DNA of 63,251 bases, the filler included, from Reclinomonas americana ATCC 50394 (taxonomy: Eukaryota): NCBI GenBank assembly GCA_048213135.1. It is 17 parts of 17 records of this genome, joined end to end, with 100 filler letters (N's around TTAATTAATTAA, not from the genome) between each part and the next. Parts side by side here need not be neighbours in the genome. Positions count along the whole stretch, not along the records: positions 1 to 4,157 come from AFZH01019891.1; positions 4,258 to 12,789 come from AFZH01019892.1; positions 12,890 to 16,092 come from AFZH01019894.1; positions 16,193 to 19,466 come from AFZH01019895.1; positions 19,567 to 22,145 come from AFZH01019896.1; positions 22,246 to 26,133 come from AFZH01019897.1; positions 26,234 to 28,407 come from AFZH01019898.1; positions 28,508 to 35,218 come from AFZH01019899.1; 9 more parts are not named here. One strand, written 5' to 3'. The translations under genes were made by a program, and so were the position numbers. Shown here one piece after another: positions 1 through 61,938 of this stretch; position 1 is the first letter of the stretch; each line of letters starts with the position of its first letter. The notes below the pieces were generated by a model, which was given only the letters and a program-made list of their open reading frames with translations, ran no database searches and was not told the DNA's origin.

Positions 1-3000
1 GCTTTCCGTTGCTGTGTTTTTCAATCTTAACTCACCCCCCGCGCGCCGTGACAGATGGCACCCTCCATGTTGTTGCTCGGTCCCGATGGCGTCGGCAAGA
101 GCGTATTCATGCGTCAGCTGAACCACCAGTTGTGGCAAGTGATGGAGGAGAGCGGCGTGTTCCCGCTTCTCGTCGATCTGCCGACGCTGCGTGATCCGGT
201 GCACCATCTCGTGTCGGAGTCTCTTGATCGCCTGATGCAGAGGTGCATTTCACGCCACCACTCTTCCCTTTTCTCTCTCGCACACCACTCACCATCATCG
301 CTTGATGATGTGCAGCGCTGGTCTGGAGATCACCGAGGATGAGATTGCAGAGATGCACGACACCATGGCCGTGGCATTCCTGCTGGATGGCTACGAGGAG
401 TTGGGACTCGACGCCAATCTCGCCGAGTCGAACAATGTTGCGCTCCACATTCGTGTTGCGCGGTCAGTGCCATGATCCGCTACTCACGCGCTTTTACCGC
501 AGCTCTTCACGTGGAAGCACTCGCGTATCATCACCACCTGCTCGGCGTCGCTGGCCGATCGCGAATCGATTGGTGATCATCGCCACCTGTTTGTACCGAG
601 CGGTCGTGTGGATACGCTGGTGGAGAGACATGTGCTGCCGTTTGATGACGAGCAAGTGCGGCAGTACCTGGACAGGTGGCTAGCCGAGACCGGGGCGCGT
701 GATGCGCGAAGGTCATCTTCGTCGGGCCTCACACCGCTGTCGGCCAGCAATGCGGCGACGCCCTCCAGCGGTGCTGCTGCTGGTGGTTCAGCAGCGACGA
801 CTGCACTCTCTGTGGGTATGCCGCTGTACATGGAGGCACTCGATCATTTGTCGGGGCTGGCTGAACTGTTCCGCTTGCCACTGTACGGGCGCATGCTGGC
901 AGAGGTGCTGCCGGACGTGATGAATGTGCTCGCGGAGAGGCCGGTGGTTGAGCAAATGGTCAAGCCCAAGGTACGCACCGCTGTTAGCATCACGGTTGGT
1001 GTCGCAGGCGCACTGACTCGGGAGCAGGATGTGATCGAGGCCTACGTAGCACGGTGGATTGGCAAGGAAATTCAGTGGCTCGACGACACCGAGGGCGCCA
1101 CAGCACCGATCCCCAGCTACGAGCGCGTCTACAAGTTCTGCCAGTCGCTGGCGTCGGAGATGCACAAGGTACGACTCACGCACCTGCTGTGTGTAACTCG
1201 CACATCATCCTCACTCTCTTCCCTTGCTCTCTGCGCAGCGCAATGTCACCACTGTGCACTTTGACTCGCAACAAGAACGTGTGTATGTGGAGACGGCGTT
1301 GGGGCCGCTGGAGACTGGCGTGTTTGCTCCCGAGATCTGGGGCCGCTTCTTCTCCGAGAGTGACGATATGTTGCGCATGGTGCGCGAATGTTCGCCAATC
1401 GCCTCGCCTCCGGGGCGGCGGCAGTTCCGTTTCCGCCACTTGTCTCTGCTGGAGCACTTCCTGGCGTCGCATGTGTACGATTTGGCGCAGTTGACCATGG
1501 AGTCGCTGACCATCGAGTATGTGGTTCAGGTCTACTTGCTTGTCGTGCTATGGGATCCGTGACCCTTCCTTTACTTATTTTTGTGTTGCTCCGTAGCATC
1601 CGCTCAACACAATTCTCATCACCAAGCGTCATTCGCTGCTGGATCGCATCGTGGACGGCGTGTTGCAGAATCGCAAAGTACAGCGTCGTTTGTGGCACAT
1701 TGTTCGCATGTCTCGGACGAACGACGATGTCTTGATTGCGGCCGCCAACTGGTGCGTGTGTGTGTTTGTGTGTGTGCCTCTCTCCTCTGTGTCGCCCACC
1801 AACACGTCTCCGTGCGCTACAGCATCACTCTGCTCGCACGCGCCGGTGTGCCTTTCCGCACGGATCTTGACACGATTCGCGTGCGAGGCGCGGACCTGTC
1901 GGGTGCCAACATGGATGGTGCATCGATTACGGCAGCTGACCTGCGCGGTTGCGGCATGGAGGGATCGTGGATGTGCAATGCCGACTTTTACGCCTCCGAC
2001 ATGGACAACTCGCAGTTTTACCTGCGCCCACACATTGCTGTTGAATCCGAAGTCGTGGAGCAGGTGTGTTTGTGCGCAGTTTCCTGTGTGCGATGCCACG
2101 CTCAATCTCCTTTGCATTCCCCAGCTGGCTACATCACCCGATGGACGGCTGGTGGCCGAGGCCAATGCCCTCAGTGACCATGTCACCATTTGGTCGGTGG
2201 AGACCGGGCAGCAAGTGGTCGAGGTAGGGATTGATTCCACTGTTTCCCCCTCCTTCTTCTACAACTGCGCATTGACTGGTTTTTTGACACAGCTGCGATC
2301 ACATACGGAGCGCATCACCAGTGTGTGCTTCTCACCGTGCGGCAAGATGGTGGGCACAGCCAGTCGCGACTTGTCCGTCAAAGTGTGGGAGGTGCCGAGT
2401 GGAAAGTTTCGTGACTTGTGTCGCCCGCCTGTTGTTCGCGCCTCACCCCATTAATTTTCCTTCTATACACAGGTGCCTGTACACGTGGCCGCACGAGAGA
2501 TCGGTAACCACGATTGCGTTCCTACCGACAGCCGATGCGTGTGTGGTGTCCGGGTGCTCCGACGGCAAACTGCGAGTGTGGGACATGTCGCTGGCCGGCC
2601 TCTGTGTGCACGAGTTGGACAGCAACATGGTGGACGTGACCGACATTGCGGTGGGACCGTCGCCAGCCGGCACGCTGGTGGCCACCTCGAGCAGCGATCG
2701 CAACGTCGTGGTGTGGAACGCCAGTCGCGAGTGGGAGATTCTCGCCACCATTCCGGCTCACGAGTTGGCCGTCAATGCCGTGTGCTTTGTGGGGGTGCGT
2801 GCACGCAAACGCATTGCTGCAAAAATCACTTGTTCGCGGATCGCTAATGTGCTTTCGTGCTCCATTATGCAGCGCTACTTGGTGACGGCGTCGGACGACA
2901 AGACCATGATGGTGTGGGACACGTTCACGGAGGATTTCGACTGCGTGTGCGCGCTGGCGACGCCGCAGAGCCCTGTGCTGCGGCTGGCGGCTGTCTCCAC

Positions 3001-59500: not shown

Positions 59501-61938
59501 TTCTGTTGTCGGCGGTGCTAATGCTGCACTGTTCGGGATTGCTGGCTCCAACCTGGTGCTGCTGTCGGCTGGCCAGTCGGGTACCCATCTGCTTGTCACC
59601 GTGCGTGCCAGCGATGCCACCGGCGGGACATTTGATAAGACATTCACAGTTCGCGAGAGTTGCGTATGCCGCTGTGTGTTTGGTCAGCCAGGAGGGCGAG
59701 TGCTAATGTGTTCCTACTCCTCCTTGCACGTACAGGGAATGTGGCGCCGACTGCCGTGAGCTTGTCGGCGTCCACGTACACTCCTCCGACTGGAGCAGCG
59801 CACGCCGTCATTGGCACTCTGTCGACCACAGATGTAAACACCGGCGACTCGTTCACGTACCAGATCGTGGGTGGAGTGGACAGTGCGCTGTTTGAGATTG
59901 CCGGCTCGCAGCTGCGGTTCGTGGCGGCCGGTCAGCGCGGCAGCAACTTGAAGGTTGCAGTGCAGACTACGGATGCTGGTGGCGCCAAATATGCACAACT
60001 GTTTACGATCAGTGGCGGTGAGCTTGGTTTTGCGTGCTGTAGCGAATGAGCAAGTGATCGGCTTACATGTATTGTTTCCCTGCTCGCGTGCATCTCTCTG
60101 TCCATTGCAGCGACTCTCGCTCCGACGGACATTACGCTGTCGGCGGCGCAATATGTACCGGCGACCGGACTGAGCAACGTGGTCATAGGCGTGCTGTCAG
60201 CAACGGACGTCAATGCGCAGGACACCTTCACGTTTTCGATATCCGGTGGTCCCGATGGCGCACTGTTTGACATTGTTGGATCCAGTCTGGTGCTTCGCAA
60301 CCCACAACTCGCGGGCGATAACCTGCAAGTGGCTGTGCGAGTTGCAGATAGCTCGGGCAATACATTCTTCAAGACGCTGACTGTCAATCAAGGTGCGTGT
60401 TTCTGTAATGCGTGTTCGTGCGCGGCTGTACCTTTTGTCTCACGTGCCTTCGCCTGCTTTGCAGCCAATGTGTCTCCGACGGATATTTTGCTGTCTTCGA
60501 CACGATACGCACCACCCCTGGCCACGGGGTCGACTATTGGCCTGCTGAGCTCTGTGGACGACAATTGTTGCCAATCGTTTGTGTACACGGTTGTCGGTGG
60601 CGCCGACCAGGCCAAGTTTGCGATTGTCGGCAACGAGTTGCGGTCAGCCGTGGCCGGCTTGACGGGCAACAATCTGCAAGTGCAAGTCCAGACAAACGAT
60701 CAGCATGGTGGCACGCTGACAAAGACATTCACTATCAACGAAGGTGTGTGGGGGGTGCGCGCGTGATGCTTTTCGGTTGCAAGTGTAGCTCAAACCCACG
60801 TGCGACGCAGCCAACGTGGCGCCGACCAACATCTCGCTTTCGGCCAACACGTACACGGCACCGACGGGCGCGGCGAATGTGGTTGTCGGAACGCTGTCTG
60901 TCACCGACGCGAACACTGGAGACTCGCACTTGCTGACCTTGGTGGGTGGTACGGACATCGGCCTGTTCAACATTTCGGGGACATCGCTGCGCATCAGTGC
61001 GGCCGGTCAGCGGGGATCTAGTCTGCGAGTGATTGTGCGTGCACAAGACAGCGGCGGCGCGACAGTGGACAAGTTGTTTACGATTGTGGACAGTTGCGCT
61101 GGCGTACGCGTGGGTGAGGGTGGTGGGTTGTCGATGCGCTTACTGTGTGTTTCCCTGTTGAATCCAACAGCACCGACGGCTCCGACGGACATCACCATCA
61201 CGGGACTAACGTACCTGCCGCCGACCGCCACAGGCAATGTGATGATTGGGTCGCTGGTGGCAGTGGACAGTAACGCGACGGACTCGTATGTGTTCTCTGT
61301 GCCGCCCATGTCGCCAGTGGACATTGTCGGCAATCAGCTGCGAGTGACCAACGCGGGAACGTCAGGAGCGCTGAGCTTCACGGTGACGGTGACGGATGCG
61401 GCAGGCTTGACATTCTCCAAGATGTTCTCAATCCAGGAGGGTGAGTGGTGCACTGCAAGGCGCCAACGCGTCGACGTTAGCTGGCACTGATTACAGTTCT
61501 CCCCCACAGCCAATGTCCCTCCAAGTGATGTGACAATCTCGTCGGCCAAGTATACACTTCCAGCAGCGATGAATGCTGTGGTTGGAGTATTGTCGGCGGT
61601 GGATAGCAACTGCTGTCAGACGTACACATATAGCATCGTGGGCGGCGCCGATGCAGCCGTGTTCAACATCAGCGGCAACCAGCTGCGTCTGAATGGAGCT
61701 GCCGGTGCGACTGGCGCCGATCTGGTGGTGATTGTGCGGGTGGACGACGGAATGGGCGGGACATATGACAAGACGATGACGATTACTGCTGGTTTGTGTG
61801 GGTATTTTTCGACACTAGGAAGTCAGACTTGTTGGGGGGCAGATAGTGTGTATTTGTATGTGTGTGCTTGTATTTTTACCCGAACTGACGTTGCCTTGCA
61901 GCGAATGCGGCTCCGACGGACATTGTGCTGTCGAGTAT
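44598..61938 (+). CDS. Giant extracellular protein: NHL beta-propeller + short FN3-like segment + ~45 cadherin-like ~95-aa repeats, one per exon; both ends lost in gaps
   Basis: NHL motifs include LYVADPGNRTIR, ARFTTPSGM, ADRGTHSIRAI and ARFNTPHSI. VSGLMSGRTYYYAPVAT follows. Repeat consensus: NVAPTDIALSATTYTPPTTANLVIGxLSTTDANSAQTFTYTIVGGANAAMFNISGAQLRITTAGQNGTGLVVIVRSTDSGSGSLFFDKTFTINE, with a phase-1 intron after each copy. Confidence 0.9.

Follow-up and report, generated by a model that had tools for sequence, protein, structure and literature searches.

A second class of 5' splice site, set one base off the common one, in a 63-kb window of the Reclinomonas americana genome

Does a genome use two 5' splice-site (donor) motifs that differ by a displacement of one base, and if so, how is the displaced motif read? 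The question is raised by a stretch of DNA from Reclinomonas americana ATCC 50394 (assembly GCA_048213135.1), here called the window, which comprises 63,251 bases at 56 % G+C in 17 contigs joined by 16 spacers, and which is eukaryotic and very intron-dense. Common donors (class 1) read G/GTNYGT, the slash marking the exon-intron boundary, and a preliminary description of the window had listed 34 introns (class 2) which instead begin with GTTNCGY or a close variant of it. The observation of a second donor class is confirmed here, and the GTTGCGY sites form a donor class of their own. With a probability of roughly one in two, we read class 2 as U2-type GT-AG introns whose donors pair with U1 in a register shifted by +1; we infer both the identity of the reader, U1, and a register that is shifted rather than bulged.

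All 34 listed coordinates carry a heptamer of the form GTT(G/T/C/A)(C/A)(G/A)(T/C/G), and the last exon base is A at 17, T at 13, C at 4 and G at none of them. About one intron in four of the window (~34 of ~130-150) belongs to class 2, as do about two thirds of the donors that follow a non-G exon end. Over the 34 sites, positions +4 to +7 are G (82 %), C (94 %), G (94 %) and T (74 %), which mirrors positions +3 to +6 of class 1 with G (58 %), C or T (42 % and 38 %), G (100 %) and T (76 %). The consensus block of class 2 is that of class 1 displaced by exactly one base, and it is more strictly kept, so that the description of two classes one base apart holds.

The most direct evidence that such sites are donors comes from a gene for an ATM1/ABCB7-type transporter, the best homologue matches of which are at most 59 % identical. 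Ten junctions were scored with a hidden Markov model made from 100 ATM1-family homologues. Within ±60 nucleotides of each junction all in-frame GT..AG or GC..AG pairs (15-49 candidates each) were ranked on the spliced translation, and the donor motif was not used. The gene and its junctions are as follows.

5476-7970, plus strand: ATM1/ABCB7-type transporter gene, found by Pfam
5608, plus strand: G/GTGCGT, best by homology
5799..5868, plus strand: T/GTTGCGT...CAG, class 2, best of 17 candidates, 162.8 against 156.8 bits (margin 6.0)
6138..6199, plus strand: A/GTGCGT, normal register after a non-G exon end, best of 22 by 11 bits
6289, plus strand: G/GTTCGT, best by homology
6439, plus strand: G/GTGAGG, best by homology
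6685, plus strand: G/GTGCGT, best by homology
6902..6966, plus strand: G/GCAAGT, GC-AG intron, best by homology
7125, plus strand: G/GTTTGT, best by homology
7385, plus strand: G/GTGCGC, tied with a GC site
7614..7691, plus strand: C/GTTGCGT...CAG, class 2, best of 49 candidates, 254.5 against 248.7 bits (margin 5.8)

The spliced ATM1 gene gives a clean protein of 603 residues with no stop. Site 5799, which had been described as pinned by a conserved motif, is indeed the first of its candidates, and the runner-up at both class-2 junctions is a GC donor three bases downstream.

Two genes on the minus strand extend this picture. For the ABCG/PDR-type transporter the junctions were varied singly and scored with a distant ABCB hidden Markov model, which is too weak on single ABCG exons and usable on the spliced domain. 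With eight introns spliced out, the gene gives a textbook nucleotide-binding domain that includes the Q-loop and TIHQPS.

~28.5-33.1 kb, minus strand: ABCG/PDR-type transporter gene (Pfam)
32899..32974, minus strand: A/GTTGCGC, class 2, ABCG, joining ..RPGE to VLGIMGPS, first of 13 candidates, margin 4.5 bits
32444..32507, minus strand: T/GTTGCGT, class 2, ABCG, from the gene model; in a variable stretch and 2.3 bits short of the top candidate, ambiguous
31206..31277, minus strand: T/GTTGCGC, class 2, ABCG Walker B ILFL/DEPT, first of 28 candidates, margin 4.3 bits
30549..30640, minus strand: A/GTTGCGG, predicted class-2 variant outside the list of 34, ABCG, from the gene model with the minus strand imposed
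29775..29781, minus strand: claimed class-2 donor in the ABCG membrane part, from the motif and a 3' scan; acceptor unclear
29160..29166, minus strand: claimed class-2 donor in the ABCG membrane part, from the motif and 3' signals
28963..28969, minus strand: claimed class-2 donor in the ABCG membrane part, from the motif and 3' signals
~23.3-24.7 kb, minus strand: DHHC palmitoyltransferase gene (Pfam)
24200..24260, minus strand: T/GTTGCGT, class 2, DHHC palmitoyltransferase, with Pfam DHHC on the downstream exon
24007..24065, minus strand: T/GTTGAGT, class-2 variant, DHHC gene, from the gene model with the minus strand imposed

The two motifs that had been cited as pinning minus-strand donors both bear scrutiny, since the Walker B site at 31277 comes first of its candidates and at 24260 a 61-nucleotide intron yields MDH/YCVWVQN and a 58-nucleotide alternative breaks the motif. 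Removal of intervals that start with GT and end with AG leaves a continuous frame in ATM1 and in the ABCG nucleotide-binding domain (class-2 sites 5799, 7614, 32974 and 31277). Searches for homologues of the subtilase gene described below and of the ABCG signature exon gave none, an exhaustive search with an exon of the ABCG membrane part yielded a single, unrelated repeat protein, and Protein Atlas gave no usable match.

Further support comes from gene finders. One that is agnostic of the donor, with GT as the sole donor information, places 7 of the 34 listed sites exactly; a two-register finder with a symmetric score, in which exon bases are ignored, places 17, and with the minus strand imposed in the DHHC and ABCG regions the model recovers 3 further listed sites. 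Altogether 25/34 have some support beyond the motif on which they were first called. Modelled introns are 56-97 nucleotides long, and CTCAY-like motifs lie 10-35 nucleotides before the CAG in the ten verified ATM1 introns and in most of the claimed ones, in a setting where a strict automatic test of 3' signals was weak (23/92 against a background of 13 %). Three other tests say little. A codon-only finder without splice signals found 0/34, its training on long open reading frames being spoiled by low-complexity frames. The open-frame length test (control median 61 against 86.5 codons) is uninformative at such G+C. A coding score of the flanks (35 codons per side) reached p<=0.05 at 4/34 sites and gave p=0.55 for the homology-verified 31277, the exons being short. 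From these alignments and models the class-2 sites are probably real introns, at least in part. The other class-2 introns and claimed sites are the following.

437..502, plus strand: T/GTTGCGC, class 2, two-register model
2406..2472, plus strand: A/GTTTCGT, class 2, NACHT/WD40 gene, donor-agnostic and two-register models
11783..11789, plus strand: claimed class-2 heptamer, from the motif, with CTCAC and a YAG 79 nucleotides downstream; the finder preferred the other strand
13073..13128, minus strand: A/GTTGCGC, class 2, two-register model
13177..13273, minus strand: T/GTTTCGT, class 2, two-register model; acceptor uncertain, with a 79-nucleotide alternative
14060..14066, minus strand: claimed class-2 donor, from the motif and 3' signals
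15285..15359, minus strand: T/GTTGAGT, class-2 variant, two-register model
15686..15692, minus strand: claimed class-2 donor GTTGCGG, from the motif
15859..15865, minus strand: claimed class-2 donor, from the motif and 3' signals
17154..17236, plus strand: A/GTTGCGG, class-2 variant, donor-agnostic model
17424..17502, plus strand: A/GTTGCGT, class 2, two-register model
18107..18170, plus strand: A/GTTACAT, class-2 variant, donor-agnostic and two-register models
19310..19316, plus strand: claimed class-2 donor GTTCCGT, from the motif and 3' signals; a TAG stop is possible instead
19989..20064, minus strand: C/GTTGCGT, class 2, C2-domain gene, two-register model
20617..20682, minus strand: A/GTTGCGT, class 2, two-register model
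20907..20966, minus strand: A/GTTGCAT, class-2 variant, two-register model
37906..37975, plus strand: T/GTTTCGT, class 2, subtilase, both models, with a continuous S8 protein
38914..38983, plus strand: T/GTTGCGT, class 2, subtilase, both models, with a continuous S8 protein
39460..39531, plus strand: A/GTTGCGT, class 2, donor-agnostic and two-register models
39784..39790, plus strand: claimed class-2 donor, from the motif; the model took the GT at 39802 instead
42501..42570, plus strand: C/GTTTCGT, class 2, two-register model
45545..45606, plus strand: T/GTTGCGT, class 2, NHL-like repeat with the VAD-x5-IR spacing of two neighbouring repeats, gene model

Heptamers GTTGCG(G/T) after A or T also occur outside the list, at 30549-30640 and 34367-34373 on the minus strand and at 25937-25943 on the plus strand. 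The one at 34373 was joined by the gene model to an implausible intron of 1264 nucleotides, and the one at 25937 has CTCAC and a CAG 72 nucleotides downstream, its strand being uncertain.

The tie between class 2 and the last exon base is strong. Among the homology-supported donors, G stands at −1 in 12/13 of the others and in 0/5 of those with GTTGCGY (Fisher p=7e-4). The gene models never see exon bases and are hence unbiased by the −1 base; outside a tandem repeat array described below they have −1G in 34/50 class-1 against 2/16 shifted-pattern donors (p=1.2e-4), and with the array included in 59/76 against 3/19 (p=1e-6). A G precedes GTT in 14.4 % of its occurrences in the window, so that 0/34 after G has p=0.011 against that background and p about 1e-17 against the class-1 rate of 68 %. 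GTTNCGY itself follows an exonic G at 0/34 listed sites and at 0/14 model donors; the seven heptamers of this form that do follow a G are antisense to supported genes, stand at the start of an exon, or are without 3' signals. Within the window, the homology set and the gene models thus agree that GTTNCGY does not follow G as often as other donors do. The earlier statement, which confined class 2 to exons with a last base other than G, was nevertheless too strong, on account of two predicted donors.

41277..41338, plus strand: predicted AAG/GTTTTGT, donor-agnostic and two-register models, at the same ..VDK/ position as in the upstream paralogous repeat
44636..44710, plus strand: predicted CAG/GTTCTGT, shifted-frame donor after G, donor-agnostic and two-register models

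A third G case lies in the array, at 60027, where the model has visibly misplaced the donor. That non-G exon ends can also use the normal register, as had been said, is borne out by homology at 6138 and predicted by the two-register finder at 37513 and 46706. Class-1 donors are exactly GTGCGT in 7/16 cases after non-G, against 4/34 after G (gene models).

A tandem array of cadherin-like repeats provides a natural experiment on this tie. There is one exon per repeat, with a phase-1 intron at a common site (...TFTINE/). Repeats whose split codon begins with G (Ala, Val) have donors of many forms, among them GTCTGT, GTCCGT, GTTCGT, GTGTGT, GTACGA, GTATGT, GTCAGT, GTTAGT, GTGAGT and one GC donor, and GTTNCGY is never found in them. 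Three repeats among the 45 donors listed have A at −1, and their donors are GTGCGT (46706), GTTGCGT (59659) and GTTGCGC (61093).

46337..61938, plus strand: cadherin-like tandem array, ~40 repeats of ~95 residues or ~350 nucleotides each
46706..46789, plus strand: A/GTGCGT, normal register, repeat-homologous site, two-register model
47081..47144, plus strand: G/GCATGT, GC-AG intron, repeat-homologous site
59659..59735, plus strand: A/GTTGCGT, class 2, homologous phase-1 site, donor-agnostic and two-register models
61093..61170, plus strand: A/GTTGCGC, class 2, homologous site, 349/348 nucleotides from the neighbouring repeat donors

The array shows that class-2 donors sit at an old, common intron site, and that a non-G exon end is accompanied by one of two strict solutions. 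This bears on the idea that the introns of class 2 arose as copies of a mobile introner with its own GTTGCGY end, or else are U12-type introns, an idea to which their uniform and strongly conserved start and their short, similar lengths would lend themselves. The introner form of it is opposed by the position of 59659 and 61093 at the site common to all repeats, by intron bodies that are dissimilar on inspection, and by positions +8 to +10 near background, with nothing conserved past +7. U12-type introns have the donor consensus RTATCCTT and the branch consensus TCCTTAAC, and donors that read GTTGCGY do not match the former. We consider this explanation extremely improbable in either form. A metagenome scan with the repeat exon found six loci of 32-49 % identity in which the repeats stand back to back without introns; we read these loci as bacterial.

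As to how class 2 may be read, its members would be ordinary U2-type GT-AG introns whose branch site is CTCAY-like and whose acceptor is CAG. The common class presents its conserved block at +2 to +6 (G/GU-N-Y-G-U, best GUGCGU), and the second class carries the block UGCGU one base further in (H/GU-UGCGU). The U1 5' end would then pair with second-class sites at an offset of one position: the intron G+1 would fill the C9 slot usually taken by the exon G−1, U+2 would be mismatched, UGCGU would pair as usual, and the cut would stay at the sole GU. When −1G is present, the canonical register would have the advantage of one more G:C pair, and many weak variants of GTNYGT would be tolerated. When coding imposes A, T or C at −1, only GTGCGT and GTTGCGY would survive, the two being about equally stable. 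The dependence on the −1 base would arise because G+1 can replace the missing −1G, and no special factor would be needed.

Pairing energies were calculated for three fixed registers with the canonical U1 5' end, AUACUUACCUG, as given in PMC4856993, pseudouridines being outside the model; all energies below assume this U1. The best register is the shifted one at 21/34 sites, a register with the +3 U bulged at 8/34 and the canonical one at 5/34, and the mean energies over the 34 sites are +2.4, +4.1 and +4.7 kcal/mol in that order, all of them weak. For A/GUUGCGU the values are +0.4 (shifted), +2.3 (bulged) and +5.8 kcal/mol (canonical). A/GUGCGU in the canonical register has +0.3 and G/GUGCGU −6.3 kcal/mol. 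The proposal that +1G takes the place of the missing −1G fits these numbers (+0.4 beside +0.3, and −6.3 with −1G), a fit that is conditional on the canonical U1.

The same energies leave some space for a bulged register, which we regard as unlikely. Here U1, and later the U6 ACAGAGA box, would pair with G+1 and U+2 in the normal register while an extra U at +3 (or +2) bulges, GCGU would take over the pairing usual for +3 to +6, and class 2 would equal class 1 plus one extra U. Such a bulge at +2/+3 is documented in human cells (PMC4856993), the register is the best one for the 8/34 sites just given, and pairing with U6 would involve a bulge in any event, YGU being located at +5 to +7. H/GTGCGT and H/GTTGCGT are one intronic T insertion apart, with the mRNA unchanged. 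A bulge with a paired −1G moreover predicts sites such as G/GTTTTGT and G/GTTCTGT after G. The cost of the bulge, however, is independent of −1, so that G/GUUGCGU should be a good donor (−4.3 kcal/mol), yet it is found at 0/34 and 0/14 sites, and over the non-G sites the bulged mean lies above the shifted one. Class 2 as a whole is thus not indifferent to −1G, nor favoured by it, as a bulge would have it; the donors at 41277 and 44636 could belong to this type. If class 2 is read in the shifted register, the absence of G/GUUGCGU would need selection or a mutational balance and not an inability to pair, since its bulged duplex is predicted to be stable.

A second or co-evolved small nuclear RNA (snRNA) would be another way to read the motif, either a variant U1 that matches GUUGCGY (A for C8, or changes at positions 5-6) or a U6 whose ACAGAGA box is altered. 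Such co-evolution of the U1 5' end is documented for Entamoeba and Mastigamoeba (bioRxiv 10.1101/2022.06.08.495308), and the strong preference for C/U at +4 together with the weak duplexes of canonical U1 leaves space for a changed U1. The same preprint gives a standard U1 for other lineages with +4C, Thecamonas and Micromonas, and a dedicated reader does not by itself account for the avoidance of exonic G by class 2. No Rfam family matched the window at the gathering threshold nor at E<=1, and no U11/U12 or other snRNA was found by Rfam within it. We hold this reading to be quite improbable. The same grade applies to its largest form, a genome-wide two-register 5' splice-site code served by a dedicated or altered snRNA (a U1 variant or a changed U6 ACAGAGA box). 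Under such a code about a quarter of all introns, and the majority of introns that follow a non-G exon end, would be read with a one-base offset, as a second and routine way of donor recognition in the major spliceosome.

Several results weigh against the shifted-register reading. Everything rests on one 63-kb window. Nine of the 34 sites (11783, 19310, 39784, 14066, 15692, 15865, 28969, 29166 and 29781) are without independent support; 8 of these 9 have a branch-like motif and a YAG 45-82 nucleotides downstream, in a scan that left out 15692. The two-register finder is imperfect: it recovers 7/10 of the verified ATM1 introns, and in the repeat array it visibly misplaces at least 4 donors.

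48496, 53491, 55582 and 60018, plus strand: four repeats in which the model put the donor 5-14 nucleotides downstream of a clear repeat-homologous G/GT

The repeat-homologous G/GT sites missed by the model read GTCTGC, GTATGT, GTACGG and GTGAGC, and these are errors of the model and not odd donors. The predicted donors 41277 and 44636 fit the shifted 7-mer after G, the duplexes of non-G sites with canonical U1 are all weak (near or above 0), and the −4.3 kcal/mol of bulged G/GUUGCGU means that energetics alone would permit class 2 after G. The exon side does not follow the intron side either. It had been proposed that both classes fit one 7-mer cut before its first GT, and this holds for the intronic block, which is offset by one, but the exon side is not merely shifted: position −1 of class 2 (A 50, T 38, C 12 %) is no copy of position −2 of class 1 (A 29, C 47, G 12, T 12 %). 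Finally, over both strands GTTGCGY is present 54 times, where shuffles that preserve dinucleotides give 38.5±6.1 and 1/100 of them reached 54. This excess is mild and its enrichment over the whole window is no argument, therefore the case must rest on where the heptamer is located.

A further view would be that there is no separate class, and that the sites are drawn from a single degenerate donor matrix with compensation for −1G or are mis-calls (chance heptamers, or GTT/GCGT). The heptamer is common by composition, the nine unsupported sites would fit such a view, negative coupling with −1G is universal according to PMC10599564, and a GC three bases downstream is the runner-up at 5799, 7614, 32974 and 31277, just 4-6 bits behind. 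The location of the heptamer nevertheless speaks against it. GTTGCGY marks 0.6 % of the GT dinucleotides (54 of ~8800), yet 5/18 homology-supported donors carry it. To the question whether the frequency fits a single donor matrix, the answer is that it does not, with 14 GTTNCGY among 91 predicted GT donors where position independence leads one to expect ~1.3. The GT cut outscores the GC cut every time, the GC cut at 24260 would break DHxC, and just 2 GC donors (6902, 47081) are present among well-supported introns. A single class, or a set of mis-calls, is therefore in our view very improbable.

The remaining content of the window was found by Pfam on single reading frames, and the further genes are these.

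~100-4100, plus strand: NACHT/pentapeptide/WD40 gene
~19.6-22.1 kb, minus strand: C2-domain gene
~36.8-41.9 kb, plus strand: subtilase fused to EGF repeats
42-43.7 kb, plus strand: H-lectin gene

The subtilase gene (36850-41902, plus strand) has its protease part first (GHGTHTTGTVAG, GTSMATP) and then EGF/teneurin-like repeats, and it contains the module TVTVTWSN/FPGNADDWA twice, with introns at corresponding places. A CT-rich, low-complexity intron of 954 nucleotides (31429-32382, minus strand) lies within the ABCG nucleotide-binding domain and gives spurious open frames of 236-377 codons on the sense strand, with a high content of Leu, Pro and Ser. At its third codon positions the verified ATM1 gene has 79 % G+C (A 7 %, T 15 %). 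Real genes score nearly as coding when read antisense, and simple gene finders therefore choose the wrong strand. The contigs are 1.2-8.4 kb long, with (GT)n or (GA)n microsatellites at several of their ends. They are separated by 16 identical spacers of 100 bases, N44-TTAATTAATTAA-N44, which have a stop in all six frames. Genes continue across the spacers with their orientation kept, so that the order of the contigs appears to be preserved.

Spacer starts: 4158 (to 4257), 12790, 16093, 19467, 22146, 26134, 28408, 35219
Spacer starts, continued: 41903, 44498, 48682, 53567, 55820, 57164, 58598, 61939

If class 2 holds genome-wide and in RNA, a non-canonical U1 register would not always be a rare, tolerated exception, and the shifted register would be a standard solution, open to selection, at donors where the exon cannot end in G. 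With its thousands of sites, R. americana would then be a natural system in which to study how the cut site is fixed under an out-of-register U1, how U6 handles the extra nucleotide, and how coding constraints at −1 shape intron signals. For annotation it would mean that a gene finder built on one donor matrix overlooks or misplaces about a quarter of the introns of R. americana. We found no abundant GUUGCGY or one-base-offset donor class described for any organism in the literature covered, which left most subscription journals outside the search, and among papers containing both 'guugcg' and 'splice site' none concerned donor classes, judging by titles and the beginnings of abstracts. An existing genome paper may already mention the class.

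The closest relatives are found in human cells, where shifted and bulged registers between 5' splice sites and U1 are established and treated as exceptions (PMC4856993); the shifted +1 register goes back to Roca and Krainer 2009, as described in PMC4856993 and PMC6140464. In that register, as here, the intron starts with GUU, the block lies one base further, G+1 occupies the −1G slot and the cut is made at the same GU (PMC4856993). The human register is, on that account, a rare exception with the block UAAGU, unlike the UGCGU of about a quarter of introns here, which are known from sequence alone. The +2/+3 bulge of Roca et al. 2012, as summarised in PMC4856993, was predicted at 68 human sites and has in common with class 2 an extra U right after GU and then an otherwise normal intronic consensus. 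It differs in that a bulge does not predict the avoidance of exonic G.

The unc-73(e936) mutant of C. elegans has a −1 cryptic site that uses the last G of the exon. The mutation is a +1 G-to-U change, upon which nearby cryptic GU sites are used (PMC6140464). It resembles class 2 in that, with U at the normal +1, a GU one base upstream can act as donor. It differs in being a mutant with out-of-frame splicing, whereas the class-2 sites are predicted to be in frame and constitutive.

A general compensation has also been described in which donors without −1G need the full intronic consensus, the negative coupling between −1G and that consensus being general (PMC10599564). The non-G donors here, which are enriched for GTGCGT or GTTGCGY, agree with such compensation, but it cannot alone create a second motif one base off. 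Non-canonical registers of both U1 and U6 are discussed for a tandem donor of STAT3 (PMC11162779). Among protists, Entamoeba combines the U1 5' end ACAAAC with GUUUGU donors and Mastigamoeba ACGUAC with GUGCGC donors (bioRxiv 10.1101/2022.06.08.495308). These lineages share with R. americana atypical donors and a pyrimidine at +4, and each of them has one transformed consensus and not two registers.

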